Assembly (NCBI GenBank): GCA_963764805.1
Contig: CAVXUB010000002.1
Span: forward strand, 769,028-833,027
Reading direction: 5' to 3'
DNA from: an uncultured Actinomycetota bacterium
GTDB taxonomy: Bacteria; Actinomycetota; Acidimicrobiia; Acidimicrobiales; Bog-793
DNA: 64,000 nt
The notes under the pieces are model-generated. The model was given only the letters and a program-made list of their open reading frames with translations. It was not told the origin of the DNA and searched no databases. Shown piece after piece: positions 1 to 64,000 of this stretch; the stretch's first letter is position 1; each line of letters opens with the position of its first letter. Both the position numbers and the translations under genes were made by a program.

Positions 1-438
1 GGCGAGCGTCTAGGCCGGGCCCGTGTCGGCACCCTGTCGGGGGGCGAGTTGCAGCGCATCCTGATCGCCCAGGCGCTGATCGGCAGGCCGAACCTGCTGC
101 TGCTGGACGAGCCCCTCGCCAACCTCGACCTCAAGGCGGCGCAGGAGGTGGTGGCCCTGCTCGACCGCATCTCGCACCAGCACGGGATCGGCGTGCTCCT
201 GTCGGCGCACGAGATGAACCCGCTGCTGCCGGTGATGGACCGGATCGTCTACCTCGCCGGCGGCCGGGCTGCCAGCGGCACGACCGAGGAGGTGGTCCGC
301 TCGGAGGTGCTGAGCGCCCTCTACGGCTACGAGGTTCACGTCCATGTCCTGCACGGGCGGATCCTCGTGGTCGCCGGCCCGCAGGAGATGCAGGGCGGAG
401 AGAGCCTGCCGGCAGATCCTCGCCTGCAAGTGCTGTGA
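1..438 (+). CDS. Metal (Mn/Zn/Fe-chelate type) ABC transporter ATP-binding protein, C-terminal part; 5-prime end lies outside the window
   Basis: Frame 1 is open from base 1. Translation shows the ABC signature LSGGELQRILIAQAL and Walker B LLLLDEP. Two cognate permease genes follow. Confidence 0.85.
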   Translation, partial: GERLGRARVGTLSGGELQRILIAQALIGRPNLLLLDEPLANLDLKAAQEVVALLDRISHQHGIGVLLSAHEMNPLLPVMDRIVYLAGGRAASGTTEEVVRSEVLSALYGYEVHVHVLHGRILVVAGPQEMQGGESLPADPRLQVL

Positions 439-454
439 GCGCCGGCGCCGTGCC

Positions 455-1377
455 ATGCACCTGATCTTCGAGCCGGGCTTCTTCTCCAGTCCCGAGGTTC
501 GCACGGCGATCGCCACCGGCGTCATCGTGGCGATCGTCTCGGCGGTCGTCGGGGTCCCCACCGTCATCCGCGGGCAGTCGTTCGCCGGACACTCGCTGAC
601 GGACGTGGCGGCCGCCGGCGGCTCAGGAGCGTTCCTGGCCGGGCTCAGCCCGGTCCTCGGGTTCGCGCTCGGCGCCGTCGTCGGTGCGGGCGCGATGGAG
701 GCCGTCACCGCCCGGCAGGGGCGTGCCAAGGCCCGAGATCTCGCCACGGGGATCGTCCTCAGCTCCGCCAGCGGACTTGCCGCGCTGTTCCTCTACCTCG
801 TCGCCACAAGCCAGAACGCCCCGAACACCAGCCAACTGGTGCTCTTCGGCTCGATCTTCGCCACGACCACCTCGACGCTCGGCCTGGTCGCAGTCCTGGG
901 CATAGTGTCGCTCGTGACGACGGCGGCGGTGCTGCGCCCGCTGCTGTTGAGCTCGCTGTCGCCCGAGGTGGCGATCGCCCGCGGCGTACCGGTGCGGGCG
1001 GTGGCGTTGGTCTCGATGATCGGCCTGGCGCTGGCCGTCGGTCTCTCGTCGGTGGCGGTGGGAGCGATCCTCTCCACGGCGCTCCTCATCGGGCCGGCGG
1101 CGACGGCCCTCCGGCTCACCCGCAGCACAGGGATGGCGATGCTCGTCGCCGCCGTCGTCGGCACGGTCGCAGTGGTCGTCGGGCTGCTGCTCGCCTACGA
1201 CAGCTATTACTGGTCCGCCAGCCACTCGGCATGGCCGGCGAGCTTCTTCGTGGTCGCCCTCGTCTTCGTCTCCTACCTCGGCAGCGGCTTCCGCGGCGCG
1301 CCGCGAGCGGCTTCCGCGGCAGTTCTTCCAGCGCCAGCGGCTCCCGTGCGCCCCGGCGGTCGGCAGGTCCCGGCTGA
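455..1377 (+). CDS. Metal ABC transporter permease 1 (TroC/ZnuB/MntB family), with an inferred indel near the 3-prime end
   Basis: ATG 455 lies 17 nt after the upstream stop. About 280 aa of multi-TM permease sequence follow. The same frame then runs on to 1819 as Arg/Pro-rich out-of-frame text. A frame-1 TGA at 1375-1377 overlaps the next ATG (TGATG), so a frame change in about 1290-1375 is inferred. Confidence 0.65.
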
Positions 1378-2241
1378 TGTTCGCCGGCTTCATGGCCAAC
1401 GCCTGGATCGTTGCGAGCACCGTGGCGGTCGTCTGCGGAGTGGCCGGGTTCTTCGTCGTCCTCCGAGGGTCCGCCTTCCCGGCCCACGCCATCCCCAACG
1501 GCGCCTTCGCAGGAGCCGCCGCCGCCTCACTCGTCGGCTCGAGCACGCTCCTCAGGCCTCGGCGTCGCCTCGGTGCTGGCGGCGCTCGGTATCGGGACGC
1601 TCGGACGGCGTGGTCGTCATGACGTGGCCACCGCCCTCGCTCTGGTGCTGCTGCTCGCCCTCGGATACCTGTTCCTCAGCCAGTCGACCGAGTACTCCCA
1701 GCAGATCTTCTCCCTGCTGTTCGGTGAGGTGCTTGGAGTGTCGGGCAATCGGATCGTCCCGGTGGCGGTGCTCGCAGCAATCTCGCTGGCAGCCGTCGTC
1801 GCCCTCTACCGCCCGCTGATGACAGTTTCGCTGCTACCCGAGGTCGGCGAGGCGAGGGGCGTGCGGCCCGGGACGATGGACATCGCCTTCCTGCTGGTCC
1901 TCGCGCTCGCCACGACGATGACCGTCCCCGTCGTCGGCTCGCTGCTGGTGTTCAGCCTGATGATCGGGCCCCCGGCAGCCGCCCGTTCGTTCACCGACAA
2001 GCCGTACGTGGCCATCGCGGTCTCGGTGGCTCTCTCGCTCAGCACGGTCTGGCTGGCGATCGGGCTCTCGTTCGAGACGAACTGGCCGGTGGGGTTCTTC
2101 GTCGGGACCGCCAGCGCTGTCTTCTACACGGCGGGACGGCTGTACGCCGCGTGGCGGAGAAGCCGATCGGCGGGGGCGGCCGTGTCCTCGCCGTGCGGCG
2201 GCGACAGCGTCATCCCGCTCCCGGTGCCGGCCACCGATTGA
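1377..2241 (+). CDS. Metal ABC transporter permease 2 (TroD/ZnuB family), frame broken near 1548
   Basis: The N-terminus in frame 0 (MFAGFMANAWIVAS...HAIPNGAFAGAAAASLVGSSTLL) continues seamlessly in frame 1 (GLGVASVLAALGIG... to stop 2241). The span length is 3n+1, consistent with one extra base. Confidence 0.75.
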
Positions 2242-2367
2242 GCCAACAGCCGACCCCTCGACCAGATGCGGTCGTCTAGGCCCGATGGTTCCGCCGGGCG
2301 GGCGGCGGGTATCTAAGGCCTGCCTTGCAGATGTTGTTAGGCATGCCATAGATTGCCTGGCCAACCG

Positions 2368-3387
2368 ATGAAAAGCCGCCTGCCACTCCTCATCGCGCTC
2401 ACCTTGTCCTGTACCGCCCTCGGCTCGGCAGGGTGCTCGGGCGGCCCGGGTGTCACGATCGAGCTCTACAACGGGCAGCACCTGCAGACCACGCAGGCGC
2501 TCGTCGACGCCTTCGAGCGCCAGAGCGGGATCAAGGTCGCCATCGAGAGCGACGACGAGCACGTCCTCGCAGACCAGATCGTGACCGAGGGACCCAACTC
2601 CCCCGCCGACGTGATCTTCACCGAGAACTCGCCGACGCTCGAGTTCCTGCAGTCCAAGGGCTTGCTGGCGGCAGTGGATCGATCGACGCTTGCGAACGTC
2701 CCGGGGCGTTTCGATTCGCCGAACGGCGACTGGGTGGGGGTGAGCGCCCGCGTCAGCGTCATCGTCTACAACACCTCGCTGATCTCGCCGGGAAACCTCC
2801 CGACCTCGATCATGCAGCTCTCGCAGCCCGCCTGGCGGGGGAAGATCGCGATCGCCCCGGCAGAGACCGACTTCCAGCCGATCGTCACCTCTGTCGTGCA
2901 TTCGTTCGGGCAGGGTGCTGCCCTCAGGTGGCTGGACGGCCTCAAGGCGAACGCTGCCGGTCACATCTACCCGGACAACGAGACGGTCACGAGCGAGGTC
3001 AACTCCGGGGCAGTCGAGCTCGGGGTGGTCGACCAGTACTACTGGTACAGGTTGCAAGCCGAGGTCGGCAAGAGTGCCACCCATTCGGCGATCGCCTACT
3101 TCGCAGCCGGCGATCCGGGCTACGTCATCGACGTGTCGGGCGCAGCCGTCCTCCGGTCGAGCAAGCACAAGGCCGACGCCGAGAGGTTCCTTGCCTTCCT
3201 GACCAGCCGGCAGGGCCAGCAGATCATCGCCGGCGGCTCCAGCTACGAGTACCCCCTTGCGGCAGGAGTCGCAGTCGCCAAGCCGGAGACGCCCTTCGAC
3301 CAGTTGCACCCGGACCCGATCGATGTGGCGGAGCTGGGCGACGGTTCGGTCGCAGTGGCGCTGCTCCGCCAGGTCCAGCTGCTGTGA
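2368..3387 (+). CDS. Fe(3+)-type ABC transporter substrate-binding lipoprotein (FbpA/AfuA-like)
   Basis: MKSRLPLLIALTLSCTALGSAGC is a signal peptide with a lipobox. The body looks like a periplasmic iron-binding protein. An upstream TTG at 2353 is also possible. Its stop overlaps the next gene's start (GTGA). Confidence 0.85.
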   Translation: MKSRLPLLIALTLSCTALGSAGCSGGPGVTIELYNGQHLQTTQALVDAFERQSGIKVAIESDDEHVLADQIVTEGPNSPADVIFTENSPTLEFLQSKGLLAAVDRSTLANVPGRFDSPNGDWVGVSARVSVIVYNTSLISPGNLPTSIMQLSQPAWRGKIAIAPAETDFQPIVTSVVHSFGQGAALRWLDGLKANAAGHIYPDNETVTSEVNSGAVELGVVDQYYWYRLQAEVGKSATHSAIAYFAAGDPGYVIDVSGAAVLRSSKHKADAERFLAFLTSRQGQQIIAGGSSYEYPLAAGVAVAKPETPFDQLHPDPIDVAELGDGSVAVALLRQVQLL

Positions 3388-6163: not shown

Positions 6164-6178
6164 GAGGGAGGGCTGAGC

Positions 6179-6898: not shown

Positions 6899-6935
6899 CA
6901 GGGCGCGTCCTAGCAAGGCGCGTCCTAGCAGGGGC
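6896..6935. repeat. 15-bp tandem repeat TAGCA(G/A)GGCGCGTCC (2.6 copies) starting exactly at the regulator's stop codon
   Basis: Read directly: tagcagggcgcgtcc, tagcaaggcgcgtcc, tagcaggggc. Confidence 0.8.
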
Positions 6936-6994
6936 CGGACGGCCATGTCGGAAATCCGCCAGCCTTCTGGTCGCCCACCTGTCAAGCTTGCGAG

Positions 6995-8530: not shown

Positions 8531-8607
8531 CAACTGCCTCTACCGCCTCTACCACGATGCTTGCAACTGCGGTGCACTGCGCCTGCAACTGCGCCTGAAG
8601 GACAACC

Positions 8608-9284: not shown

Positions 9285-11230
9285 ATGGCGCCGCTCAGCA
9301 CACGAGAGATCCGTCAGGCCTATTTCGACCATTTCACGAGGCGGGGACACACGATCATCCCTCGCGCTCTCCTCGTCCCCGCGAGGACCCGACAACGCTG
9401 TTCACCGGCTCGGGGATGCAGCCACTCATCCCGTATCTGCTGGGCGCACCGCACCCGGCCGGCGACCGGCTCGTCGACTCGCAGACGTGCTTCCGCGCCG
9501 AGGATATCGACGAGGTGGGAGACACGCGCCACACCACCTTCTTCGAGATGCTCGGCAACTGGGGCCTCGGGTCCTACTTCAAGGCGGAGCAGCTCCCCTG
9601 GTTCTTTGCGTTCCTGACGGAGGTGCTCGGACTCGATCCGAGCCGGCTCTACCCGACCGTGTTCTCCGGCGACGATCGCTTCGGGATCCCTCGCGACGAG
9701 GAGTCTGCTGAGATCTGGACCCGACTGCTGAGCGAAGCGGGCGTGGATGCCAGGAGCGTCGAGCTCGGGACGGCGGAGAACGCCTCCAAGGTCGGCATAG
9801 GCGATGCCAGGATCTCGTTCTTCGACGCCTCCAAGTGTTGGTGGAGCAGGTCCGCCTCCCCGGAGGCGATGCCCGTCGGAGAGCCCGGCGGCCCGGACTC
9901 CGAGGTCTTCTACTGCTTCGACCAGGTGAGCCACGATCCCGCCTATGGCGAGCACTGCCACCCGCACTGCGACTGCGGTCGCTTCATCGAGATCGGCAAC
10001 TCGGTCTTCATGCAGTACCGGCGGACCGAAGACGGCTTCGAGGAGCTGCCGCAACGCAACGTCGACTTCGGTGGAGGCTTGGAACGCTTGGCGATGGCGG
10101 CGATGGGCTCGCCCGACGCCTTCCGGATCGATCTGCTGGCTCCGCTCGTCGAGCATGTCGAGAAGCGAGCCGGCGTGGGCTACGACGAACACGTCGCCTC
10201 CGTGCGCATCATCGCCGACCACGCCCGCGCGCTCGTGTTCCTGGCAGCTGACGGCGTGGTGCCCTCCAACACGATGCAGGGCTATGTGATGCGGCGTTTC
10301 GCACGTAGGGCGATGCGCCAGGGCCACTCCCTCGGGATTACCAGCCAGCTGCTCGCCCCATTGGTAGAGGTGGTCGTCGCCGCCTACGGCGACGCCTACC
10401 CCGAACTGGCGGGGCGTGAGAAGGAGATCACCGAGGTCCTCGACAACGAGGAGCAGATGTTCAGGCAGACCCTGACGCGGGGCGTTCGCGAGTTCCGCAA
10501 ACTGGCAGGCGACAAGCTGACCGGTGACACGATCTTCACCCTCTTCGACACCTACGGGTTCCCACCCGAGCTCTCGCTCGAGGAAGCCGCTTCGTCGGGG
10601 CTTCCCGTGGCGCCGGATTGGCGCGCCCGCTACGACGAGCGAATGGCTCAGCAGCGCCAGCAGTCCTCCATCGCTCAGGGCGTCTTCAAGGGCGGCCTCG
10701 CCGACCAGTCCGAGGCCACGACAGAACTGCATACAGCCACCCACCTCCTCTACAAAGCTCTGCGCCTGGTCCTCGGAGAACATGTCGTGCAGCGGGGAAG
10801 CAACGTGACAGCGGAACGCCTGCGCTTCGACTTCTCGCACCCGGCGAAGATGACGAAGGAGGAGCTGGCGGAGGTCGAACGCATCGTCAACGAGGCAATC
10901 GAGCGAGACTGGCCGATGTCGTGGCGGGAGATCCCGACCGAGGCCGCCTTCGGCGAGGGTGCACTCGGCGCCTTCGGCGACAAGTACGGCGAGACCGTCA
11001 AGGTCTACACGGCAGGCGATCCGCATGGCGAGTGGTACAGCAAGGAGATCTGCGGAGGACCCCATGTCGAGCACACAGGAGTCCTCGGCCGCTTCAAGAT
11101 CGTCAAGGAAGAGTCCTCGAGCGCCGGGGTGCGACGGATAAAGGCGATAGTCGAGAACCAGGAACGCCGGACAGGTGGCGGCCAGCGCCTGAGGCTTGTG
11201 CCGGTACGCGCGCATCATCGGGGGCCGTAG
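9285..11230 (+). CDS. alaS: Alanine--tRNA ligase, short form (catalytic, tRNA-recognition and editing domains, no C-Ala domain); 1-bp frame break at 9377-9380
   Basis: Frame 0 gives MAPLSTREIRQAYFDHFTRRGHTIIPRALLVP, then frame 2 gives REDPTTLFTGSGMQP... Editing-domain motifs HTATHLL and CGGPHV are present. The ORF ends about 20 aa after SAGVRRIKAIV. Confidence 0.8.
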
Positions 11231-16110: not shown

Positions 16111-16741
16111 TCACCATGGTGCGAGATCGACGAGAGGCGGGCCGGCACGGCGACCGGACAGCCAGGCGACAAGCTCGGCGCGGTCCTGCGCAGTTGCCAA
16201 CCGTGCCGGCAGCGTGCCGAGGAGCTGCGGCAGCTCCCATTCGACGTACGGGTCCGGCCAGTCGGACGGCGCGTAGCCGAGGCCCAGATCGACGTGGTGC
16301 ATCTCCACCTCCCGGAGCCTGCGAACCGGGCTGGCCGTGGTCGGCCAATGGTCGCCACCCATGAAGTCGGAATGCGGCCATCCGGCGGACAGGCACTTGT
16401 CCCAGGCGCGCTCGATCGCCCGGTTCATCTCCTTCAAATCGGAGGCGATGGCTCGTGCCGACCGTGTGGCGCCGGCGGCGATGCCCGCGTCCCGCTCCGC
16501 AGTGCCTCCCGGGTATCTCGGGATGTCTTCACCTCGGAGGGCCCCCTCGAGGCGGCGGACGTGACCTTCGGCGTTGCGCGCCAGATGGCTGAGGACGTGC
16601 CCGAGCGTCCAGTCCGGCAAGCTGCTGGGCCGCCGGACGGCGTCGTCGTCCAGTTGGGAGACCGTCGCCTCGATCCGCGCATGGGAGGCGTGCGCCAGCT
16701 CGATTGCCAGGGTGGGGTTGTCGTCGAGAACGCTCGCCCAT
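16111..16741 (-). CDS. Mycothiol-dependent maleylpyruvate-isomerase-like / DinB-fold protein; probable extra G just after the ATG
   Basis: DinB/MDMPI N-terminal motifs are seen (LPDWTLGHVLSHLARNAEGH). ATG 16741 directly abuts the upstream TGA. Removing one G of the GGG run gives MASVLDDNPTLAIELAH in frame. Confidence 0.75.
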
Positions 16742-20112: not shown

Positions 20113-21508
20113 TCAGCGCGTCGCCGTCTCCACCAAGTCGAGAGCCAATCGGGTGTCCACTTGCAGACGGAACCTACCTCGCCCCGTCTTGTGGATCCGG
20201 ATGGCGGCTTGGCTCTCGTCGAGGCGTCGCTTCAGCAGCACCAGCCGGTTCTCGAAGTTGTCGCGAAACTCAGGCAGCTCCAACGACGGGTCCAGCCTGA
20301 CCTCCCGGTTGGTGAAGTCGACACGGCCCTCGTCTCGGTGCTGGCGGAGCAGTGACCAGAGCAACCGCCCGGCCACACCTCTGATGAGGTAGTCACCGTC
20401 GAGGAAGGTGCTCCCGTCCACTGGGAAGAAGCGGACGTGCGTCGTGCTTCCTGTGGCCGGGAGCGGATCCGCCGTCTGGTCGACACCGGCGGGAGACGCA
20501 TCCGTGGCTCGATCGCGGACCCGCTCGATCTCGATCGCGTTCCCCACCAGGGAGGCCACCACAGTGAGGAGTGACTCGTCCTCCTCGTTGAAAGCCAGGG
20601 CATCGGTACTCTCGACGACGAGAACCCCGACGAGCTGGCCGAGGGCCATCGTGGGAACCGCCAGACGGCTCCCAGCGTTGGGGAGGCCGGGCAGCGGGAC
20701 GTCCTGCCCAGGGCCGATCTCTCCGTGCTCCTCGTACGTCCGGCGCAACCCTCTCGCGTACTTGCCCATCTGGTTCAGGTTGCCAAGGCGGATCGGATGG
20801 CAGCGGGCCGCGGCCATCCCGACGATCCCCTCGCCGACCGATAGCTCCGAGCCCACCCCTTCGGCCTCGTACCCGCGGCTGGCGATGGTATAGAGGCGGG
20901 TGCCGGCCTCGTCGAGCAGCATCAGCGCACAATTCCGGTAGCCGAACAGGTCGGCCAGGCCGTCGACGGTGGAACTCACGAGCGTGTTCAGATCGGGGCA
21001 CCGCCCCAATCGGGAACTGAGCTCGGCCAGTCGCGCAGGGACGTCCGTCGTGGCAAGCGCGGTTCCGGACCGGGATCTCCGCGCTTTCGGCGCGGGACGG
21101 AACCGCCTCGATGTGCAGGACGCGATAGATGTCGGCTCCTCGGAGCTTGAACACGCCTTGCATTCCCTGCAGCGCTGCCACCGCCTCCACGTCCTCGTGC
21201 AGCAGCTCGAAGACCTTTCCCCGCCGGTCTGTCCGCTCGTAGACCAGAGACAGCCGGTACTGCCGGAAGCTGGAGGGATCGAGGAGGACGACACTGGCCC
21301 GCGGGTTCTCAGCCAGGTTCCGCGAGGTCTTGGAGAAGAACTGGTTTGACAGCGCGATGCGCTCGTCGTCGACCATTCGCACGCGAGACAGGTAGGTGAT
21401 GTTCGGCGTCCCGTCGGCTGAGGCTGTGGCCACCACGGCGGGCTTGACGCCCTCGAAGCACAAACGAAGCTCTCCCAGCGGGATTGTGGCGGACTGGTCC
21501 AGGGTCAT
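20113..21508 (-). CDS. PNPOx-like (FMN-binding split-barrel) / GAF / C-terminal putative DNA-binding sensor protein; frame break at about 21060-21085
   Basis: The N-terminal 150 aa are PNPOx-like (ADGTPNITYLSRVRMVDDERIALSNQFFSKT). A GAF domain follows (VDGLADLFGYRNCALMLLDE...GIVGMAA...LAVPTMALGQLVGVLVVES). The two parts lie in different frames, with no stop in the first frame. Confidence 0.75.
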
Positions 21509-23380: not shown

Positions 23381-23657
23381 CCTGTCGGCGTGATCTATCA
23401 CTTGCTTCCGAGGCGGGACTGGGAGGGCGCGGCGCGACGCGGACGAGGTCGCTACGCCGGGGGGAGAGGGCTTTGTCCACTGCTGCGACGAGCACCAGGT
23501 GGGTCCCGTCCGCTCGCAGTGGTTCGACCGCGACATCGATGTAGTAGCACTTCGTCTGGATCCGAGGACGCTCGCCGCCGAGACGCGCTACGAGCCGGAT
23601 TCGTTGGGCGAAGACGAGCGCTTCCCGCACGTCTACGGCAATGTTCGATCCGCGGAT
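23374..23657 (+). repeat. Direct repeat, copy A (about 284 bp, roughly 95 percent identical to 27504-27787)
   Basis: Aligned by eye base by base. The offset is 4129 bp. Weaker similarity extends about 25 bp further upstream, into the DDN gene's 3-prime end. Confidence 0.85.
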
Positions 23658-23903: not shown

Positions 23904-25872
23904 GTGTTGCGTCGACCGAGGAGCACGAGTCGAGCTCTTGTGGGTGCACTGGTTGTCGGCGCCATCCTCGCCAGCACCGGCGGACGCGGAGCCGCCGACG
24001 TGACTGCGGGCGTGAGGCTTTCCAACGGACGGCGCCGTGAAGTCGCCCACCCCGGTCGGCGCCACCTGGACGACCGACCACGTGCCGGCCGGGATCACGG
24101 CGGTAGGAGAGCCGGTCTGCCCGACCGTCCTCGACTGCTGGGCGCTCGCATCCGGCGCATCAGGCGTCGAGGGCATCCTGGCCACCACCGACGGCGGCGC
24201 GTCGTGGAGCCTGCAATCGGCACCAAACGCGTCCGACCTCGGGGCGCTGTCCTGTGCGCCCGGGACCTCGGATTGCTGGGCTGTCGGAACGATCGGAGCC
24301 TGGGACGGCGCCGTGATCGATGCGCAGGATGACGACCAGGGGTGGAGTTCCCAACAAGTACCGGGCGGCGTCGGCGCGCTGGTGTCGATCTCGTGCCCGA
24401 CGGCCCTCGAGTGTGTGGCCGGGGGTGCCATCTTCGCCGGAGGAAACGCTGACGACGGAGCCGACGTCGTGGTCACAACCGACGGAGGTTCGTCATGGAC
24501 CGCCAACCCTTTGGCGAACACGTTCAACGGCAATGTCAATGGGATCTCCTGCCCCAGCACCTCGGACTGCGTCGCCACTATCAACGAGCACACCTCGTCT
24601 TCCATCATGATCAGCACGAATGGCGGTGAGACCTGGACATACCAGTTCGAAGTCGACAGTCTGAGCAGCGCCGGATTGACCGGAATCTCGTGCCCCACGA
24701 CAAGTACCTGCTACGTGGTCGGTCAGAGCCAGCATGTCTCGAAGTTCGGGGCGGTGATTGCGGTGACCACCGATGGCGGCGTGCACTGGTCCGGGGAAAC
24801 GCCGCCCGCGGGCGCCAGCACGATCGGGCTCGACGGGATCTCCTGCCCGACAATCTCGAACTGCTGGACGAGCGACGGCGGCTCGCTCTTCAAGACCACG
24901 ACCAGTTCCTTCTTCGAAACAACCGACGGCGGCTCGACGTGGTCAGCCGCCGGACCATCCGTACCGGACGGAAACTTCTCGGCCCCGACGTGTCCGGATG
25001 GATCGACCTGCGTCGCCGGCGGCACATTGCCAGGCAGCTCCCAGAGGGGGCTCGTCGCCTCCACCCTCGACGCTGAGGGACTCGGCTGTGACGGGACGCT
25101 TCCTGTCGGCGAGGCTGCCGGTCTGGCAGCCGACCCCGACGGAGGGGGCTACTGGCTCGCCTCGACCGGCGGTGGCGTGGTGGCCTGCGGCACGTCCACG
25201 TTCTACGGTTCTCTCCCCGTTGAGCAGAAGACGCCGAGCGCTCCCATCGTCGCCATCACGGCGGCGACGGGCGGGAACGGCTATTACCTCCTCGCCCGGG
25301 ATGGCGCCGTCTACGGGTTCGGACCGGGAGCAACCGTCTCCGGTTCGGGACCCCCCGCTGCAGCGCCTTACGTGGGGATGGCGGTAGACGGCGGCTACTG
25401 GCTCGTCTCTGCCGACGGCGGGGTGTTCAGCTTCGGCGTGCCCTATCGGGGCTCATTGCCAGGGCTCGGTATTCGTGTCCACGACATCGTTGGCATCGCG
25501 GCCGACACGACCACTGAGGGGTACTGGCTGGTCGGGGCGGACGGCGGGGTCTTCAGCTTCCGTGCTCCCTTTCGCGGCTCGTTGCCAGGCCTCGGGGTGC
25601 ACGTGGACGACATCACGGCGATGACCGGCGGCCCAGGGGACGTCCAGGACTACTACCTTTTCGGATCTGATGGCGGGGTGTTCGCATTCGGTTCGGGGCT
25701 CACGTTTTGTGGGTCGGCGGCGGGGCGGATCTCCTCACCGGTAGTCGCAGCGGCGGTCTACCCCCTCGGTGGCTACTGGCTGATCGGGCGCGATGGCGCG
25801 ATCTATGGGTTCGACTCCCCTGACGACGGCAGCGCCTGGTCACCGTCCGGGCTTCATACCCCAATCTGCTAG
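23904..25872 (+). CDS. Secreted BNR/Asp-box repeat plus GYWLV-DGGVFSFG beta-propeller-like repeat protein; frame break at about 24000-24016
   Basis: GGAGG precedes GTG 23904, and the signal peptide VLRRPRSTSRALVGALVVGAILAS lies in frame 0. The body lies in frame 1: six T(T/S)DGGxxW BNR motifs, each followed by ISCP..x.C, then five or more GYWL(V/A)..DGG(V/I)F.FG repeats. Confidence 0.75.
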
Positions 25873-32874: not shown

Positions 32875-33727
32875 ATGGCTGTCGAGGTACGCAACGACGT
32901 CCAGTTCGGAACTGGTGGGGGTCGACCGCTTCGGGCCGACCTGTACCTGCCGACTCCGCGGTCGGAGGGCGCTGCGCTGGTGATCCTGCTCCACGGCGGC
33001 GGCTGGCGGGGAGGCAGCCGGGGGATGGTCGAGGGCTACGGCCGGCGCCTGGCCGAGGCTGGCCTGGTCTGTATGGCCCCCGAGTACCGCCTGACCCCCG
33101 AGTCACCCTGGCCGGCCCAGATCCACGACACCAAGGCCGCCATCCGCTGGGCCCGCCGGCATGCCCCCGAGCTGGGCGCCGACACGACCAAACTGGCAAT
33201 CCTGGGTCGGTCAGCCGGCGGTCACCTGGCCCTGCTGGCGGCAGGGACCCCGGGGTTGGACGAGTACGAGGGCGACGGCGGTGAGCCGGGAGTCGACACC
33301 TCGGTGGCGGCCGCCATCGGCATCTTTCCGCCGACCCTCATGTACTCAGGTGCTCGCCCCCGGGGCGGAACCCCGGCATCGGCTCTGATGGGCGACGCCG
33401 CCACGGAAGAGTCGGCTCGTCTGGCCAGCCCGGTGGCCCACGTCGACGATGTGTACCCGCCCACCTTCCTGCTGCACGGGACCGAGGACCGCGTCGGTAC
33501 CGCCGTCGGCCAGCATGGTCATGTACGACGCCCTGGTGGCGGCCGGCCGCCCAGTGGAGCTGCACATGTACGCCGGCCAGCCCCATGGATTTGCCGGAGG
33601 GCCGGACTTCATCGACCTCTGTGCAGCCGAGATCATCCACTTCCTCGGCCGGGTCTTCGCCGGCCTGGGCCAGGCGGAAGAGCCATCTGTGGTCCGGGAC
33701 TCGGCGTGGCCCTTGGTCGGGCGATAG
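32875..33727 (+). CDS. Alpha/beta hydrolase (esterase/lipase, HGGGW type); 1-bp insertion at about 33496
   Basis: Oxyanion motif LHGGGW and nucleophile elbow GRSAGG. The C-terminal part (VPPSASMVMYDALVAAGRPVELHMYAGQPHGF) lies in the +1 frame. The span length is 3n+1. Confidence 0.8.
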
Positions 33728-37367: not shown

Positions 37368-37371
37368 GAGG

Positions 37372-40221: not shown

Positions 40222-40889
40222 CCTGATCGGATCCGAGCGGGGTGTCGGGATCGATCTGCCACAGGGCGCCGCCGGGAGCGCCGGTGCACTGAGAACGCCG
40301 GTATTGCAAACCGAAACCGTATCCGCCCAGGGTCTCGGCCTCGAATCGCCACGCTGCTGCTTCCTCCTCGAACCGCGGACCGGGCAGCCCGGACGTCGTC
40401 GAACTCGACTTCGGGCCGGGCGACTACGGCCCTACCCGAAATCTCACAACTGAAAGTCGGCAGGGCGACGGACTGGGTTGGCAGCACCTCGGACAGCCGA
40501 CGGGGGGACGGTACGTCGAGAATCGCATAGTGCAGCTCGTCGACCCTGTACTGCGTCGGCTCGGTGTGGAGCAGGGCTGGCGAAGTCGCCGCCAGTTCGC
40601 CGAGTCCGTACGTCCGGTAACAGCGGCTGAACAGGAACGGGAAGTCATAGTCCTGGACCACGGCCTTCTGGGCCTCGTCCGTCTCCAGACCGTTCTCCGT
40701 ACCGGGCCAGGTCACCCACGTAGCGCCTCCGTCGTCGCTGTACTCGATGACAACCCGGTTCGCGATGTAGAGCACTCTGTGAGGCACATGGCCAGCGACA
40801 ATCAAAGGTCTCCCGGCATACTCGCTACGCGCGTGCATCCCTCGGAGATGATCGATACGACGCCACTCCAGGGCGTCTTCGTCCGTCAT
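40197..40889 (-). CDS. Hypothetical protein X (about 230 aa), reconstructed across a frame change near 40375
   Basis: MTDEDALEWRRIDHLRGMHARSEYAGRPLIVAGH...EVEFDDVRAARSA continues as protein-like text in another frame (FEEEAAAWRFEAETLGGYGFGLQYRRSQCTGAPGGALWQIDPDTPLGSDQDARRPTAS, TGA at 40197-40199). The listed frame turns Arg-rich beyond that point. Confidence 0.5.
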
Positions 40890-41131
40890 GGTCTTCACCC
40901 CAGAGATCACTGACCGGTGTACCTCTGCTGTCACGTGGTCTCCTGCGCGATGGATCGAAATCGGGCAAACGTTGCCGGTGGCGGCACTGCCAGTCTCCTC
41001 GAGTCGGCCGACGGCGGATATCGGGGAGGTCGGTCGGGTGTGCGAGCTGGTTCGCTCGGTAACCCGACCTCACCTCACGTCACCCAAGCGGCGCCGCCCT
41101 GTCGCTCGCGGCCCGGATTCCCGCGTCGGCT

Positions 41132-51360: not shown

Positions 51361-52559
51361 CTACAGCTTGGTCAGCGCCCGCTTCAACGAGCGCACTCCC
51401 TGAGCTATCCGCTGCTCGTTCTCGATCAGGGCGAAGCGGACGAACCCGTCACCACCCTGCCCGAAGCCGACTCCCGGCGAGGTCGCCACCTTCGCCTCCT
51501 CGACCAGGAACTTGGAGAACTCGAGCGAGCCCATCTCCTCGTAAGGCTCCGGGATCTGCGCCCAGACGAACATCGTGCCCCTCGGCCTCGGAACGTCCCA
51601 GCCGATGCGCGACAGCCCGTCGCACAAGGCGTCCCGGCGCGACCTGTATACGGCGTTGACCTGCAAGGATAGTCGGGCGCCTCGTTCATCGCCACGATGG
51701 CGGCGATCTGGATGGGTTGGAAGGTCCCGTAGTCGAGGTAGGACTTGAGCTTCGTCAGCGCCTGCACGATCTCCCGGTTCCCGACGAGAAAGGCGACCCG
51801 CCATCCCGCCATTGAGAACGACTTGGTCAGCGTGTAGAGCTCGACCGCCACCTCCTTGGCCCCTTCGACCTGGAGTATCGATGGCGGCACGTAGCCGTCG
51901 AAGTAGGTGTCCGAGTAGGCGAAGTCGTGGACCAGCACCACTCCGTGCTCGTGGGCGAACTCCACCAGCCGGGTCATCGTGGCGAGGTCGATGCAGGTGG
52001 TGGTGGGGTTGTGGGGGAACGAGAGAACGACGACACGGGGCTTTGGCCATGCCGACTCCCACGCCTCGACGAGGTTCTCGAAGAAGGCTTCACCGGCACC
52101 CGCCGCGTCGGCTGTACCGAGGCCGCCGAGCCGCACCGTGCGAATGTCGGCGCCTGCGAAGAGCGGGGCGTAGATGTGGATCGGATAGGACGGCGAGGGC
52201 ACGATGGCCGTGTCACCCGGCTCTACGAGCGTCCACATCAGGTGCGAGAGGCCTTCCTTGGCGCCGATCGTGGTGACGACCTCGGTGTCCGGATCGATCG
52301 CCACGCCGAAGCGACGCTCGTAGAGCGCCGAGATCGCCTCCCGCAGGTGGGGGATACCTCGCGAGGCCGAGTAGCGGTGGTTTCGGGGGTTGCGTGCCGC
52401 CTCGACGAGCTTGTCCACAGCGACATCAGGTGACGGGATGTCCGGGTTGCCGAACCCGAGGTCGATCACGTCCTCGCCGGCGCGGCGGGCCGCGAGCTTG
52501 AGATCGTTGATCGCCGCGAAGACGTACGGCGGCAGCCCGTTGATCCTTCGAAACTCCAT
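51361..52559 (-). CDS. Class I/II PLP-dependent aminotransferase (AlaT/AspC-like); 1-bp deletion at about 51667
   Basis: [13 protein letters not shown]...GFGNPD...SASRGIP...SFPHNPT...KSFSMAGWR. The C-terminal part ([15 protein letters not shown]...[12 protein letters not shown]) lies in another frame. The span length is 3n+2. Confidence 0.85.
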
Positions 52560-57209: not shown

Positions 57210-57425
57210 TCAGCCCGCCTTCCTCGAGTAGCGCAGCCGAGGGACGAGACCGGCTCCCACCAGCATCCTGACGGCGCGGTACTCGTCGGCGGCGATGACA
57301 ACAGGTCCCCTCGCCATCTCGTCGCGCTCGACGATGAAGGTCACCAGACAGTCCTCGCAAGCCGGCCCCCGCCCGAGGGCGCAGTCGTCGCAGCTGATCG
57401 TGATGGCGGTGTCGCTCGCCTCCAT
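57210..57425 (-). CDS. Small Cys-rich hypothetical protein (71 aa)
   Basis: An internal ATG at 57425. It carries a CDDC...CEDC pair (MEASDTAITISCDDCALGRGPACEDCLVTFIV). Confidence 0.5.
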   Translation of the reverse strand: MEASDTAITISCDDCALGRGPACEDCLVTFIVERDEMARGPVVIAADEYRAVRMLVGAGLVPRLRYSRKAG

Positions 57426-57611
57426 GTCCGATGCCGGCGCGTGTCGCCGGCAGTGTCGCCAGGATTGCCACTTCGCACCTCCTCGTCGGGCGTCGCCATC
57501 GCGTCGCGCTCGGGGACCATCATGACGAGCGGGTGTATCACAGCTCTCACGGCTCTCCCGACCACGGCCGCACGGTACTCGCGGCCGCACCGCCAACTAG
57601 GTTCTCGCAGC

Positions 57612-59147
57612 ATGACGTCGCGAAGACTGCAGGCCGTCTGGGAGGCGTGCATCCCCGAGGTACGGGAGTACGCCGGCCGGCACGAGTACGACGGGCGCGT
57701 GCAGGACCTGTCTCCCTCCGGCGTGGCCGCACTGCTCGCCCGCCTCGGCGAGGGTGCCCCGCTGCCAGACCTACACGACGAGGCCCACCTCTCGGCGATC
57801 GAGGCCGGGTACCGCGTCTACTTCGGCGTGACCGAGGAACACCGCTGGAACCCCTTGCCGCACCTGGGCAATCTCGACCTCGCTTGCTACGACCGGGAGT
57901 ATGCGCCCGCCGGCGAGCGCAGGGCGGCCAAGCTGTCGCATCTCCAGCAGTGGCCCGACGCCGTCGCCGGCTCGATCAGCTCCCTCGACTCGGTCACGGC
58001 GCCTGTCGCCAAGGCTCTCCTCCCAGCTGCCCGAGGGTTGGCCACGGTCGCGACGCAGGCTGCGGACGAGGAGATGACATCACAACAGCGCTCGGCGCTG
58101 GCGAGCGCACTGCCCGCCCAGGCAAGACTGGTCGACCATCTCGAGCGGGCCGTGGAGGCGGCAACCCCCTTCGAGCCGGTCGGATCCCGGAACCTCGCGC
58201 TGATGCTCGGCTCGACGCAGGGGATGGCGATCGAGCTCGGCAGGCTGGAGCTCGCCGCCGATCGCGAAGAGGGATCGCCTGCGCGCCCTCCTCGGCGATG
58301 CATGCGCTCGGCTGCGCGAGCACGCCGCTCCCGCCGAGCTGCTGAAGGAGCTCAGCGCCGACCACCCCGACGCCGAAGGCATCTACGCCTCTGCCCGTGA
58401 GCTGATCGACGAGGTGACCGCCTTCACCCTGCGAACGGCGGCTGTTGCCCCCGCTCGGCGGCAGCTGCCTGGTCGGTCCGGCCCCGCCGTCACGGCGTTG
58501 GGCGACGGCGATGATGTCCTGGGCGGCGCCCGGCGAGCCGGAGGCACCGGCCTGGTACTACGTCAACCCACCGGACCCGGAGTGGTCGCAGGAAGAGCAG
58601 CACCAGTGGTTGGCGACGTTCAGCAACACGACCCTGCCGGCGATCACGGCCCACGAGGTCACGCCGGGGCACTTCGCCCACGGGCAGATGCTCTCGCGGG
58701 CGCGGGGGAGGTCAGGCGGACGCTCTTCTCGGAGGCCTTCGTCGAGGGGTGGGCGCACTATGCCGAGGAGCTGATGGTGGAGGAGGGGTTCAGGGCGAAT
58801 GACCCGGTTTCGCGATCGGCGTCTACGTCGAGGCCCTGATCCGCGTGACACGCTTCGCTGTGGCGCTCGGGGTCCAGGGCGGATCGATGTCGTTGGCGGA
58901 GGCGACGCGGCGTTTCGAGGAGGATGCTTTCTTGGAGGGGCCGGCGGCGAGCAGCGAGGCGAATCGCGCCCTCTACGACCCCACCTACGGTCGCTACACC
59001 TGGGGCAAGTTGGAGATCATGGCGCTTCGCGACGAGGCGATGGCCCTCTGGGGAAGCAAGTACAGCCATCTGCGCTTCCACGAAGCACTGCTGTCGCTGG
59101 GGGCGCCCCCGCTCGGCACCATGGGCGACGCGATCGGCGACGCCTGA
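57612..59147 (+). pseudogene. DUF885-family (metallopeptidase-like) protein, reading frame broken four times
   Basis: Collinear protein-like segments lie in frames 0, 1, 2, 1 and 0, with switches near 58270, 58440, 58700 and 58805. The motif is HEVTPGHFAHGQ, followed by FSEAFVEGWAHYAEELM. Confidence 0.75.
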
Positions 59148-59155
59148 GCCCGTCG

Positions 59156-59726
59156 ATGGACGTCGACTGGAACGCCGAGCTGATCGATCAGCTGGAAGCG
59201 CACTGGAGGGAACAGTTCGGCCCCGGCTGGAGGGACTGACGGATGACGAGTACTTCTGGCAGCCGGTCCCGGGCTGCTGGACGCTCGCCGCCGCGGCGAG
59301 AGCAGGGCGCCCCTGTCGCTGGGCGCCGGCGAGTTCACGATGGACTACGCCGAGCCCCCGCACGAGCGCCAACCGGTCACCACCATCGCCTGGCGGATGG
59401 CTCATATGATTGAAGTGTTCGGGCCACCGGGAGCGCCACATTTCAGAGAGAAGCCGCCCCATCGGCCGCCTCTCGAATTCGTGGGCACCGCGGCGGGTGC
59501 CCTGCGCCAGCTCGACGAGGGGCACGACTCCTGGATCGAAGACGTGCGCGATCTCGGCGCTACAGGGCTGGCCAGACCGCAGGGAGCCATCTCTCCGCCC
59601 GTCTTCGCCGACGAGCCGATGGCCAAGCTCGTGTTGTACACGAACGTCGAGATCGTCCATCACGGGGCAGAGGTGTGCCTGCTACGAGACCTCTACCTCT
59701 GGAGGGACGAGCAAGTGGACCGATGA
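59156..59726 (+). pseudogene. DinB-family protein, reading frame broken twice
   Basis: Segments MDVDWNAELIDQLEAHWREQF, then LEGLTDDEYFWQPVPGCWTL, then TTIAWRMAHMIEVFG...IVHHGAEVCLLRDL lie in three frames, with switches at about 59215 and about 59320. Confidence 0.7.
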
Positions 59727-59768
59727 GGTGCGCTCAAGCGCCGGGCGGGCGCTTCCGATAACACTCCC

Positions 59769-61430
59769 GTGCGAGACAAGAATCGTCTGAGCCGTGGTGC
59801 GGGGGCTACGCTGGTGGCGGTTGCCATGGGGACCGCCCTGCTCGCCTTCGGGTCGTCTACGGCTTCGGCGACGTCGGCCTGCTCGGCCGTGCACGGCACC
59901 GCCGTGCTTGGCGCGGCCGACCAGGTGACGGCAGCCCGCTTCACACTCGGAGAGCCGGTCAAGCTCGAAACAGAGCGACACCGTTCACGGGGATCGTCCC
60001 GCCGCACAATCCGAGCCACGACATCTGGCCCCCCAACCCCAACTTCATGGCCGACTGCAACGGCGGCTCGCTCGACAACAGCAGTCGGTGCATCAGCACG
60101 ACCCAGGCAGCCATCACCAACGCCCGCCTGACGGAACCCGTGGGAGCGCTGAACTTCTCCCTTTCGGGCTTCGAGAGCCTGCCGGAGGCCGAACAGCTCT
60201 TCGCCATCGCAGACCTCGAGCGAGTCGCCCGTGGGCTTCCTCCGATGGTCGCCCTCACCGAACAGCTCGACAAGGCTGCCGCTTACGGCGCCGACCACGA
60301 CACCGACCCCACCTCTCCGGCTCCATCACCGGCGGCGGCTGGTGGGAGGCCTGGGGCTCGAACTGGGCCGGAGGAACGATCAACGCCATCGCCTCGGACT
60401 ACTTCTGGATGTACGACGACGGCTACGGCAGCAGCAACCTGGACTGCACGTCGCCGAGCGCTCCCGGATGTTGGGGGCACCGCGACAACATCCTCGGGAC
60501 GTACATCAACCCTTCTTTCGATTGTCCGGACACCCAGCTCATCATGGGTGCCGCCGACAACCCGACAGCGGAGGCGGCCGGCCGTCGTCGCCAGATCTTC
60601 GTCGGCGACTGTGGACCCCTCCCACCGGACGTCGTCTACACCTGGGCGGAAGCCGAGACCGTCCTCGGGCTGGCGCATCAACCGCCTCCCGTCGTCATCG
60701 CCGGCATTGCTCCGACTCCGGACGGCAAGGGCTATTGGGTCGTCAACAGCGCGGGCAAGGTCTGGAACTTCGGCGACGCCCCCAACTTCGGCGACCTGTC
60801 CGGCATACCTGAACGCTCCGATCGTCGGCATCGCTGCCGATCCGCTGGCTGCCGGCTTCTGGCTCGTCGGCGCCAATGGCCGGATATTCACCTTCGGCGG
60901 CGCCAAGTTCTACGGCTCGGCAGGCTCGTTCCACCTCAACAACCCGATTGTCGGGATAGCCGCTACCACCTCGGGCGACGGCTACTGGATGGTGGCCGGC
61001 GACGGCGGCATCTTCTCCTTCGGGGCCGCCAGGTTCCACGGGTCGATGGGCGCCTCACACCTCAACGCCCCGATAGTCGGTATGGCGGCCGACCCTGCCA
61101 CTGATGGCTACTGGCTGGTGGCGGCCGACGGCGGCATCTTCTCGTTCGACGCCAGGTTCTACGGATCCGAGGGCAACACGCCACTCACCACGCCGGTCGT
61201 CTCGATGGAGGCCGCGGGCGGTGGCGTCGGGTACCGCCTCGTGACATCGGGTGGTTCGGTGTATTCCCTGAACGCCGTCGACTACGGATCACCGGCTTCC
61301 CAACCGGCAGCGATGACTGCCATCGCGGGCGATCCGGCGACCGGGGGCTACTGGGTCCTCGGTGCCAACGGGTACCTCGGCGCCTTCGACGCGCCCGGTT
61401 GGGGTCGCCTTGATCGCCGGCATGCGTTCC
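59769..61430 (+). CDS. Secreted protein: N-terminal Cys-containing domain plus GYW-DGG-F-FG beta-propeller-like repeats; at least three frame breaks, 3-prime end uncertain
   Basis: A signal peptide (GATLVAVAMGTALLAFGSSTASA) is followed by ...NFMADCNGGSLDN... and ...WWEAWGSNWAGG...CWGHRDNILG... Repeats follow, e.g. LNAPIVGIAADPLAAGFWLVGANGRIFTFGGAKFYGS. Frame switches occur near 59975, 60300 and 60805. Confidence 0.65.
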
Positions 61431-61858
61431 TAGGAGCGACTGGGCAGAACGGCCGTGGCGTCGGCCGCCACCTTCACCTCGCCGGCCTGATTGGTGAGGG
61501 TGCACTCGAGGTCGACCAGGTTCCCGAGGCCCTCGTTGCGCTTGGCGGTGACCACGACCCGTGTCACCAGCGTCTCTCCGGGCCACGTCTGCTTGGCGAA
61601 ACGTGCCTTGTAGCGCCTGAGCCGCCCAGCACCGACGTACGCCTCGACTGCCGATGCGAGGAAGCCCATCGAGAACATCCCGTGACCGAACACGGACGGC
61701 ATGCCGGCCGAGGTGGCGATGATCTCGTCGTGGTGCATCGGATTGAAGTCGCCGGAGGCGCCGGCGTAGACGACCAGATCGGTCCTCGACAGCAGGTGGC
61801 TCCGCTCGGGCGCGGCGGCGCCAACCTCCACGTCCTCGAAGTACAGCTGCCCGCTCAA
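61430..61858 (-). CDS. MaoC-family (R)-specific dehydratase, HadB-like
   Basis: The hotdog-fold motif is YAGASGDFNPMHHDEIIATSAGMPSVFGHGM. Confidence 0.85.
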   Translation of the reverse strand: MSGQLYFEDVEVGAAAPERSHLLSRTDLVVYAGASGDFNPMHHDEIIATSAGMPSVFGHGMFSMGFLASAVEAYVGAGRLRRYKARFAKQTWPGETLVTRVVVTAKRNEGLGNLVDLECTLTNQAGEVKVAADATAVLPSRS

Positions 61859-61872
61859 GAGCGTGTCCTCCC

Positions 61873-62384
61873 TTACGCGCGATGGATCAGGTTCGACCTT
61901 GCCACGACGACGGCATCGCCGGTCGAGTCGTCCGTCCAGGTCGTCTCGGTCACGAGGAAGGTCATCAGGTGGCCCTTGCTCTCCTTCTCGTAGACGTCGG
62001 CGACGACCGTCACGCCGCTCAGGCGGTCGCCGATCGACATCGGTCGCCGGTACTCGAACTCCTGCTCACCGTGGAGCAGGATGCCACCCTGCGCCAACCG
62101 GCCGCCGATCACCTCGGCGATCGCGTTGAGGTCGACGGGCTCGCTCGGCTGCAGCTCCGGGTAGCTGCCCCAGTGCTCCATCACGAACGGAAAGGTCACG
62201 GGCACCGGGATCGCCTCCAGGCCAGCCTCGGACGCGGACGAGGATCCCGGTAGACGGGATCCTCGTACTTCAGCGCCTTGGCGAAGTCGGCAACCGGCGC
62301 CCGCTCGACGACGACCCGGGAGCGGTGAGTGACCTTGCCGATGATGCTGCGATCGACGGCATGGCGCCCATCCCCTTGCATCAC
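61873..62384 (-). CDS. MaoC-N/hotdog dehydratase subunit, HadA-like; frame break at about 62243
   Basis: MMQGDGRHAVDRSIIGKVTHRSRVVVERAPVADFAKALKYEDPVYRD continues in another frame as SSASEAGLEAIPVPVTFPFVMEHWG... The span length is 3n+2. Confidence 0.75.
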
Positions 62385-62387
62385 AGC

Positions 62388-62461
62388 GGCCTACAGCGCC
62401 CCTGCGCCCAACGGTTACAGCGCCCCTGCGCCCGGTGGCCTACAGCACCTCTACGCCCCGG
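62388..62461. repeat. Three tandem 24-25 bp repeats (GGCCTACAGCGCCCCTGCGCCCaac type) immediately upstream of the HadA-like start
   Basis: Read directly: units at 62388, 62413 and 62437. The third is more diverged. Confidence 0.75.
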
Positions 62462-62524
62462 CCGGCGGTGCTCCTTTGGACCCCGGGCCGCCGGTCGACG
62501 TACCGCCCTTGAGGTCGAAGGCGA

Positions 62525-63125
62525 TCATTGCCTCGAAGGTTCCCGTAAGGCTTCCGCACCATCATGGCGTGCGCTCCCTTGGCGAGTCCGGATTCGGGTC
62601 ACCCGGAAGAAGCGAGTCGTCGGCGAGATCTTCGCCGAGACGTCCACTCCGTCCGGTCGCATGATCGTGATCGAGGTCGCGGAGATCGCCTGCACGGTCC
62701 CTCGGTCGATGTCGACGGTGACCCCAGCAGCCCTCCCCTTGCCCTTCACAGTCAACTCGGCGTGGATACTGCGACGCATCAGCCGGGCGAGAGCCCGCAG
62801 GCGAGGACCCGATTCGCCGCAAGCACCACCCCGCTTCGTGGTGCCGGACACTGCCAGCGACGCCGTCGCCGTCGCGCCCGACACGCCCGAGGTGCCGGCT
62901 GAGGTGCCCGAGGAGACGGCTGACGACCCTCCGTTGCTCCCGCACGGCGCTACCAGGGCCAGTCCGGCTGCCATCTGGTCAGACGCCGTCGTCGGGGCCT
63001 TGGCCGCAGGGGTGTCGAGACCTGACAGCGGTCCGGCCACGGCGAAGGCGCGCCGCCACAACCACCGCCGCCAACAATCCGACAACCGCGCCGCTGCGGG
63101 CGTGTGACTTGATCCAGTTCAACAA
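62525..63125 (-). CDS. Small membrane-anchored/secreted hypothetical protein; frame break at about 63058
   Basis: GGAGG precedes TTG 63125. LLNWIKSHARSGAVVGLLAAVVVAA (a TM/signal segment) continues in another frame as AFAVAGPLSGLDTPAAKAP...VTVDIDRGTVQAISATSITIMRPDG. Confidence 0.45.
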
Positions 63126-63170
63126 CTTGGTCCACCTCCGTTATCGGTGAGCCGAGGCTCTCGTCACCAG

Positions 63171-63856
63171 TCAACCGCGGCTGCGTGAGGCCGGCATGCG
63201 GGAATTGTTATGAAAGTGTGAGCCCCGGGAAGGACCTTCGGGGGCGGGGGGCATCGCGGCGAGCCTGGAGGCGAGGTCCCTGAAGGCGAGCGCCCGATGG
63301 GAGCGAGCGTCTGCGCCCAGGTCCATCTCGGCATCGGAGCGCCCGCCACCCCAGTCCGGGGCGAACACAGGGTCGTATCCGAACCCCTGGCTGCCGCGAG
63401 CTGCATCGAGGATCACGCCCCGCACCACACCTTCGCCGGCGACTTCCTGCCCGTCCGCCCAGACGGCCACGGCAACAGTCGCAAAAAACCGCCGCCCGCT
63501 CCCCCAGCCCCTCCATCTCTGCCAGCAGCTTCTCGAGCGTTCTAACGGTAGGTCGCCCCCTCCCCACGTAGCGAGCCGCGAAGATGCCGGGTCGCCCGTC
63601 GAGGGCGTCGACGAACAGTCCGGTGTCGTCGGCTATCGCCGGCAACCCAGTGGCGTCTGCAGTGCCGACGCTTTCAGGCGGGCGTTCTCCAGCAGCGTGC
63701 TGCCCGTCTCCGCGACTTCGGGAACGTCGGCGGGCCGCGCCACGAGCACGAGGTCGGGAAGCGCGGCGGCGAGGATCGTCTCGATCTCTACAACCTTGTC
63801 CGGGTTGGCGCTGGCGACAACGAATCTCCAGCCCGGCAGTTTGCCGCTGCTGTCAT
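63171..63856 (-). CDS. rdgB: Non-canonical purine NTP pyrophosphatase (RdgB/HAM1 family), frame broken two to three times
   Basis: Segments FVVASANPDKVVEIETIL..., ...PAIADDTGLFVDALDGRPGIFAARY... and ...GSQGFGYDPVF...SHRALAF lie in different frames. One switch is in a T6 run on the coding strand (about 63480). Confidence 0.75.
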
Positions 63857-64000
63857 GGCCGCGCCGGGGGGCGACAGCGAGAGTCGCTGCTTGAGCTGCG
63901 GTCAGCTCGGCCACGCCCTGACCGGCAAGCTCCAGCAAACGGTCGAGACCCCCCGGGAAAATGGAGCACCCTCCGCGGCGCCCTGCACCTCGATCAGCCT
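63853..64000 (-). CDS. rph: Ribonuclease PH, C-terminal end (partial; rest lies outside the window), with a frame change in a G-run
   Basis: RLIEVQGAAEGAPFSRG is followed, after a shift in the G-run at about 63941-63948, by LDRLLELAGQGVAELTAAQAA. The rph-rdgB gene order is widely conserved. Confidence 0.6.

Follow-up and report, generated by a model that had tools for sequence, protein, structure and literature searches.

The frame breaks that interrupt genes in a 64,000-nucleotide stretch of an uncultured Actinomycetota genome are very probably consensus insertion/deletion (indel) errors of a noisy assembly, and not the product of genome-wide gene decay. The stretch, hereafter the window, is G000:C2:769028-833027, where G000 is the label of the source assembly and C1, C2, C5 and C6 are contigs of it; contig C2 ends 462 nt past the window end. 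The pattern of lesions is read directly from the deposited sequence, and from this pattern we infer both their technical origin and the sequencing platform. In the explanation we favor, the breaks would be single-base insertions and deletions left uncorrected in the consensus of a draft metagenome-assembled genome (MAG), probably built from single-molecule long reads. Such error would be spread over the whole genome at about one detectable frameshift per 5 kb and would be roughly ten-fold more frequent where the consensus presumably drew on few reads, as in the last 7 kb of contig C2. The real genes of the organism would most likely be intact.

Frame breaks in the window

The coding frame was followed with a seven-state Viterbi path (six frames plus non-coding) on codon log-odds, with the codon table trained on long open frames of G000 with high third-position G+C. 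Within the window this tracker switched frame at 1303/1554, 9382, 16749, 21061, 33513, 51669, 58260, 58692, 58806, 59226, 59294, 59975, 60312, 60804, 62243, 63049, 63477 and 63657. These switches coincide with the positions listed in an initial annotation made from the window alone, and the tracker was at most 8 nt off at 10 of the 11 sites later bounded by homologues. In the syntenic core, open reading frames (ORFs) of contigs G004:C94 and G008:C40 were compared with the window by tblastn; for genes without syntenic relatives, joined products were searched in 150 genomes of the order. Additionally, pieces were fused across a joint and the Pfam match was inspected for continuity. The nearest relatives compared belong to other genera of the same family, with about 67-79% DNA identity in conserved genes.

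The initial annotation had listed 27 positions and had described about 25 conserved genes as interrupted. The positions proved to be accurately placed frame breaks in the deposited sequence, with homologues or Pfam profiles collinear between frames: 19-20 were confirmed, 4-5 are plausible, 3 are unverified and none was refuted. The number of genes was overstated, as the 27 positions fall in about 17 genes. Positions 19988, 39250-39330 and 63058 are the ones without confirmation, because Pfam gave no match for the ORFs around 19988, 39100-39700 and 62531-63109.

Several genes illustrate how homology passes from one frame to the next (coordinates are collected in Table 1). A single relative protein matched the DUF885 gene as five collinear high-scoring segment pairs in frames 3, 1, 2, 1 and 3, and the joined product gave a single Pfam match (1-530 of 532) despite four breaks in a 1.5-kb gene. 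The 399-401 amino acid (aa) aminotransferase ORFs of G004 and G008 are divided over two G000 frames, and Aminotran_1_2 (2-346 of 361) runs unbroken over the joint of the fused product. Similarly, a 175-aa ORF of G008 aligns with the dehydratase as 7-45 and 46-169 in two frames, while FAS1_DH_region (2-124 of 132) spans the joint. The collinearity proposed for the frame joins of these three genes held. In rdgB the Ham1p_like profile is covered as 2-55, 56-114 and 113-184 in three frames, and relatives concur; the break at 63477-85 adjoins a run of six A on the forward strand (T on the coding strand), six being the length of the longest homopolymer run in the window. For the second ABC-3 permease gene, four relatives are collinear over the joint at 79/80, 104/105 and 165/166, and the ABC-3 profile covers 4-55 and then 62-251 in different frames. 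The alaS-type gene has codons 1-31 in frame +2 and the remainder in +1, and the N-terminal part matches the orthologues of G005 and G008.

Genes that are split in G000 are single open frames in relatives. Residues 3-181 of the DinB_2 protein lie in one frame in G114, G023, G028 and G096, whereas G000 has the pieces 1-28, 24-47 and 44-188. The PNPOx-GAF fusion is a single ORF of about 460 aa in 9 genomes, with residues 5-464 in one frame in G092, G071, G138, G094 and others, and is found in G000 as two pieces, 1-161 and 149-464. The repeat protein has residues 49-331 in one frame in G143, G060 and G072 but is represented by pieces 1-57, 56-171 and 167-331 in G000, where alignment to its paralogues also shifts frame at 60805-60810; its natural stop is likewise absent near 61410-61450. 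For the hypothetical 380-aa protein, residues 1-171, 172-214 and 205/227-373 of the homologues P0001-P0007 lie in three different G000 frames, and the break at about 40250-40275 is an additional one that had been missing from the list. Finally, in the alpha/beta hydrolase the BD-FAE match (2-202 of 215) stops at 33496 and Peptidase_S9 (157-210 of 213) goes on in +1.

The initial annotation also stated that housekeeping genes are affected. Homologues bear this out for the alaS-type gene, the aminotransferase, rdgB and the second ABC-3 permease gene; for rph the breaks were judged by eye from known RNase PH motifs.

Type of lesion and genes affected

All gene fragments in the window remain open and homologous over their full extent. 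We counted as a nonsense-type interruption any stop between same-frame segments with a gap of at most 12 nt, and found 22 in 3.46 Mb of G000 (0.64 per 100 kb) versus 1 in 150 kb of relatives, which is the control level. Because same-frame stop interruptions match the density in relatives, the excess is purely in indels. Furthermore, the indels extend to single-copy essential genes. The rpoB gene is split at C6:247946, so that a 273-aa open frame encodes Rpb2_1 and a different frame encodes Rpb2_2 to Rpb2_7. No intact copy of rpoB, alaS or thyX was found in the assembly, nor any second copy of alaS or thyX; breaks also affect glyA and dxs, for each of which the assembly contains one further homologous match.

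The frame changes are not tied to homopolymers, although the initial annotation had placed many of them at short runs. Among 710 junctions detected genome-wide, 14.5%, 3.9% and 0.6% have a run of at least 4, 5 or 6 within ±10 nt, compared with 13.2%, 3.3% and 0.4% at random coding positions, and no enrichment was found within ±20 nt either. Of the 19 tightly bounded sites of the window, 4 touch a run of at least 4, as many as expected by chance, and 9 lack any run of at least 3. This absence of enrichment argues against pyrosequencing-type or classic nanopore homopolymer-length errors and for random single-molecule indels or an unpolished consensus. Programmed or tolerated recoding, in which ribosomal frameshifting or transcriptional slippage would restore the frames, has nothing specific in its favor beyond a few sites in short runs. 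With some 700 sites that lack a common motif and long homopolymers and that shift both ways, its probability is close to nil.

The direction of the changes is balanced at the 19 bounded window sites (9 net +1, 10 net -1) and biased to insertion genome-wide (487 net +1 versus 223 net -1). Natural bacterial mutation is biased to deletion. The insertion bias runs against this tendency and therefore counts for error.

Other signs of decay were also looked for over the whole of G000. Coding-state density is 88% versus 92% in relatives, only 25 repeat pairs of at least 90% identity are present, and no expansion of insertion sequences (IS) was seen in a genome-wide repeat comparison. Since coding density is near normal and repeat pairs are so few, there is neither erosion nor IS expansion. 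Between the repeat copies there are 127 gap openings and 568 mismatches. In a three-copy element of 1.49 kb, the 1-nt insertions and deletions private to the odd copy lie mainly outside runs.

Distribution over the genome

G000 comprises 7 contigs and 3.46 Mb at 68% G+C, with zero N, a completeness of 83% and a contamination of 1.8%; genome size and G+C are in line with relatives. A frameshift-like junction was scored wherever the upstream frame was still open for at least 45 nt beyond the switch. By this rule G000 has 710 junctions, or 20.4 per 100 kb, at similar density in the five large contigs. The same code found 11 junctions in 350 kb of relatives (3.1 per 100 kb; 0 in 50 kb, 2 in 100 kb and 9 in 199 kb). 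Ranking the junctions by how long their flanking segments are was tried and dropped, as it yielded mainly ordinary gene boundaries with weak C-terminal tails, and a random sample was used instead. Of 20 junctions sampled at random outside the window, 10 are spanned by a single Pfam domain, 9 are undecidable and about 1 is a gene boundary. The straddling domains include ThyX, glyoxalase, MlaE, SHMT, acyl-CoA dehydrogenase, DXP synthase, sulfite/nitrite reductase, glycosyltransferase and M24 peptidase.

Junctions occur nearly everywhere, with at least one in 277 of 343 bins of 10 kb, but not evenly: at a variance-to-mean ratio of 2.3, the counts are over-dispersed. The outermost 5 kb at contig ends carry 37 versus 20 junctions per 100 kb (P=0.003), and the hot-spot of the window is itself a contig end. 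About 20 breaks lie there over eight consecutive genes, mostly of the syntenic core, and each gene is affected; the first 57 kb of the window have about one break per 5 kb.

The over-dispersed counts could also reflect the collapse of several strains present together, or chimeric joining with a relative of low abundance, as the cause of hot-spots beyond low depth. A region at the start of contig C5 would fit such an origin. Its positions 1-8000 hold a second, divergent copy (70-80% nt identity) of the rplK-rplA-rplJ-rplL-rpoB region otherwise found at C6:243-249 kb, with about 6 frame changes in 7 kb; chimeric joining, or contaminating sequence at the end of the contig, may account for this copy. 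However, the hot-spot of the window shows synteny with relatives and occurs only once in the assembly, and strain collapse is expected to leave mostly substitutions. We consider this origin of the hot-spots unlikely. As it too would be an assembly artefact, it would be a variant of the explanation by consensus error and not its opposite.

Discussion

The results presented here lead us to favor consensus indel error over genuine mass pseudogenisation, that is, a reductively decaying or mutator lineage with hundreds of frameshifted genes. The initial annotation had leaned the same way, and the indel-only lesions, the broken essential genes, the spatial pattern and the coding density support it. 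Pseudogenisation would fit the fact that the breaks do stand in the deposited sequence and that a ribosomal-protein cluster and the 23S rRNA appear free of such lesions. In contrast, it is hard to reconcile with broken single-copy rpoB, alaS and thyX, with nonsense interruptions that are not in excess, with a near-normal coding density and no IS expansion, and with a genome size and G+C like those of relatives. Genes with up to four breaks, full-length homology and no stop, the enrichment at contig ends and the insertion bias speak against it as well, and we regard it as highly improbable. If the indels were nevertheless real, a free-living high-G+C actinobacterium would have to tolerate hundreds of frameshifts, rpoB and alaS included, by correcting them genome-wide in the RNA or at the ribosome, or the genome would have to come from a very recent indel-mutator lineage just before extinction; either case is extremely improbable.

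It is important to realize that several observations weigh against an explanation by consensus error. No near-identical sequence from another assembly was found with which the breaks could be compared, in collections that may lack records of the source genome itself. When an intact neighbour gene was used to look for an independent copy of the organism in Joint Genome Institute (JGI) metagenomes, the best match had 63% identity; a look-up of exact proteins returned zero records, and a scan of species representatives with the alanyl-tRNA synthetase (AlaRS) reached 62% at best and only outside the family. The ribosomal-protein cluster at C6:262-278 kb has 0 flagged junctions versus about 3 expected, in short genes that cut the power of detection. 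Additionally, comparison of the 23S rRNA region (7 kb with flanks) with three relatives revealed no private small indel in conserved context, where about 1-2 were expected and power is accordingly low. Lastly, some breaks lie in a variable defence/mobile island of the window and one in a truncated duplicate (23426), and real decay is quite possible at these places.

This last point leads to a mixed origin, in which artefacts make up most of the breaks and true pseudogenes a minority, located in the island (~19.5-41 kb) and in duplicated remnants. One candidate is the DUF952 copy at 23.4 kb. The frame change proposed for it at about 23427 is borne out by its paralogue, since tblastn and DNA alignment show G3 here versus G2 in the copy at 27510-27815. 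The same copy is also 3'-truncated, with its last codons missing, and diverged at the 5' end, and it could be a true remnant. Furthermore, homology to a relative's 189-aa ORF, which comes after a conserved 61-aa ORF and may form a VapC/VapB-type pair with it, ends abruptly at 38556, and the island has almost no counterpart in relatives. However, with about 7 breaks in 21 kb the island is no denser in them than the syntenic core at the contig end, and these breaks are indistinguishable from the genome-wide background. We give a mixed origin about an even chance.

Consensus error as the source of the great majority of breaks is also in keeping with a comparison to known decaying genomes. In Mycobacterium leprae and Sodalis-type symbionts, nonsense mutations, frameshifts, deletions and IS insertions are mixed, coding density is lowered and essential genes are spared. 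G000 resembles these genomes in the large share of genes that are interrupted, but it has neither the mixture of lesions nor the reduced coding density, and essential genes are not spared.

The closer resemblance is to MAGs assembled from long reads, either Oxford Nanopore Technologies (ONT) or PacBio continuous long reads (CLR). Like these, G000 has few long contigs, a depressed completeness of marker genes and many genes split by 1-nt indels, over which homologous proteins realign collinearly between frames. Few contigs together with low completeness are a known signature of indel-laden long-read MAGs (PMC8103633). When frameshifts were corrected in two MAGs of this type, completeness went up from 85% to 94-95%, most of all where coverage was low (Cusco et al. 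2021, PMC8103633), and frameshift-aware correction of residual long-read indels is implemented in proovframe (bioRxiv 10.1101/2021.08.23.457338). Where long-read MAGs show a stronger effect at low coverage, G000 shows more junctions at contig ends. In contrast, the usual nanopore signature is deletion in homopolymers (PMC9262707), whereas the junctions of G000 are not linked to homopolymers and net insertions exceed net deletions by about 2 to 1. The error type thus resembles random single-molecule insertion errors or an unpolished consensus.

On this reading the frame breaks are an assembly artefact and say nothing about the biology of the organism. Gene calls, pseudogene counts, completeness estimates and apparent split genes or fusions in this genome are not to be trusted without frameshift-aware handling. 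Our approach also illustrates that errors can be separated from decay without reads, by the ratio of frameshift to nonsense interruptions, by whether single-copy essential genes are affected and by examining relatives under one codon model.

Further features of the window and assembly

Table 1. Features with frame breaks in the window (window coordinates)
Feature	Position	Strand	Frame change and evidence
ABC-3 permease gene 1	1291..1375	+	net -1 break, plausible, inferred from absent stop
ABC-3 permease gene 2	1550..1555	+	frame +2 to +0, net +1; relatives and Pfam
alaS-type gene	break 9377..9380	+	net -1, inside C4 run; orthologue N-termini
MDMPI_N/DinB-type gene	16736..16741	-	net +1, G3 run on coding strand; plausible only
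PNPOx-GAF fusion gene	21026..21063	-	two frames, net +1; intact single ORF in relatives
DUF952 copy, truncated	23424..23427 (23426)	+	frame change past codon 15, net +1; paralogue
BNR/sortilin-like secreted protein	24000..24016	+	N-terminus +2, body +0; plausible only
alpha/beta hydrolase	33494..33514 (~33496)	+	+0 to +1, net +1; two profiles
Hypothetical 380-aa protein	40250..40376	-	three frames; breaks ~40376 and ~40250-40275
Class I/II aminotransferase	51660..51669 (~51666)	-	net -1; relatives' ORFs and joined product
Hot-spot	57400..64000		~20 frame changes in final 7 kb, at contig C2 end
DUF885 gene	57564..59144	+	breaks 58261-68 (+1), 58431-36 (+1), 58693-705 (-1), 58803-07 (-1)
DinB_2-family gene	59156..59723	+	breaks 59227-33 and 59289-98; intact in relatives
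Repeat protein, multi-copy family	59808..61450	+	breaks 59975-78, 60310-22, 60805-10
FAS1_DH_region (HadA-like) dehydratase	61876..62390	-	break 62244, net -1
rdgB (Ham1 family)	63252..63830	-	three frames; breaks 63477-85 and 63657-60
rph 3' part and rph/rdgB junction	63830..64000	-	break near 63945; ~63860 no stop in shared frame; plausible

Four genes in Table 1 carry plausible breaks. In the first ABC-3 permease gene, the tail in the gene's own frame is open to 1816, a +0 stop at 1375-1377 adjoins the ATG of the next gene, and relatives terminate about 22 aa beyond 1291. The MDMPI_N/DinB-type gene has an ATG immediately past the upstream stop that is out of frame with the gene body; as an alternative to a break, the gene may use an in-frame upstream TTG or ATG start that overlaps the kinase gene. 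The BNR/sortilin-like gene has a Pfam match on its body, and a three-frame reading places a signal-peptide-like N-terminus in another frame. For rph, a reading of the same kind suggests at least 2 further breaks between the window end and the end of the contig.

Around the alaS-type gene, the AlaRS at 9285-11230 (forward strand) is a short form of about 646 aa with tRNA-synt_2c and tRNA_SAD and without a C-terminal domain, as in family relatives. Among species representatives outside the family, it is matched best by Saccharimonadales/Patescibacteria MAGs, with identity up to 62%. Upstream, in ogt (Methyltransf_1N plus DNA_binding_1), no ATG, GTG or TTG occurs from the upstream in-frame stop to the first conserved residues (8599-8620, forward strand), and this start region may hold one more break that the initial list did not include.

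The two DUF952 copies lie in direct repeats of about 284 bp (23375-23657 and 27504-27787; 87% and then 98% identical) that bracket a 3.8-kb cassette. The island shows almost zero DNA match in family relatives at 28500-41000. It encodes AbiEii/AbiEi (28515-30145), a GIY-YIG ORF (30698-33199), a cyclase-STAND NTPase-TPR protein (34144-36627), a Swt1-like HEPN protein (38767-39231) and the conserved 380-aa hypothetical protein (39766-40889). At 31528-31921 (reverse strand) the coding signal moves to another frame over 393 nt while the ORF at 30698-33199 stays open all through; the shift is either a compensating pair of indels or an artefact of the model.

Next to the island, a class II (B12) ribonucleotide reductase of 1707 aa is intact (41245-46368, reverse strand). 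Compared with relatives it has insertions at 43033-44178 and 44857-45924 with LAGLIDADG_3 and Intein_splicing matches, and it probably bears two inteins, as judged from these domain matches. The G004 enzyme seemingly has one intein at another site.

The repeat protein belongs to a family (60630-61450 in the window) present at no fewer than 10 places in G000, with C-terminal repeats of about 42 aa that carry the motif ..DGGIFSFG.A.F.GS....LN.PIVG[IM]A....GYW.V; the family gave no Pfam match at E<=0.01. Elsewhere in the assembly, the copies of the 1.49-kb element lie at C1:659106-660592, C2:509762-511252 and C5:350450-351939, at least 2 of them adjoin tRNA genes, and about 25 substitutions together with 9 small indels set the C1 copy apart. 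The longest repeat pairs, considered as possible rRNA, proved not to be; only tRNAs are nearby. The 23S rRNA gene itself (C2:470955-475045, locus L215) measures 4.09 kb versus a 2.9-kb model and so contains large insertions; it is also enlarged in G003 (4.4 kb) and G015 (3.8 kb).

Other genomes of the order with few contigs and low completeness also have split matches, with PNPOx-GAF in three pieces in G126 and in two in G088. Frame junctions are likewise dense in G015 (3 in 7 kb), and these three genomes probably share the same kind of assembly error.

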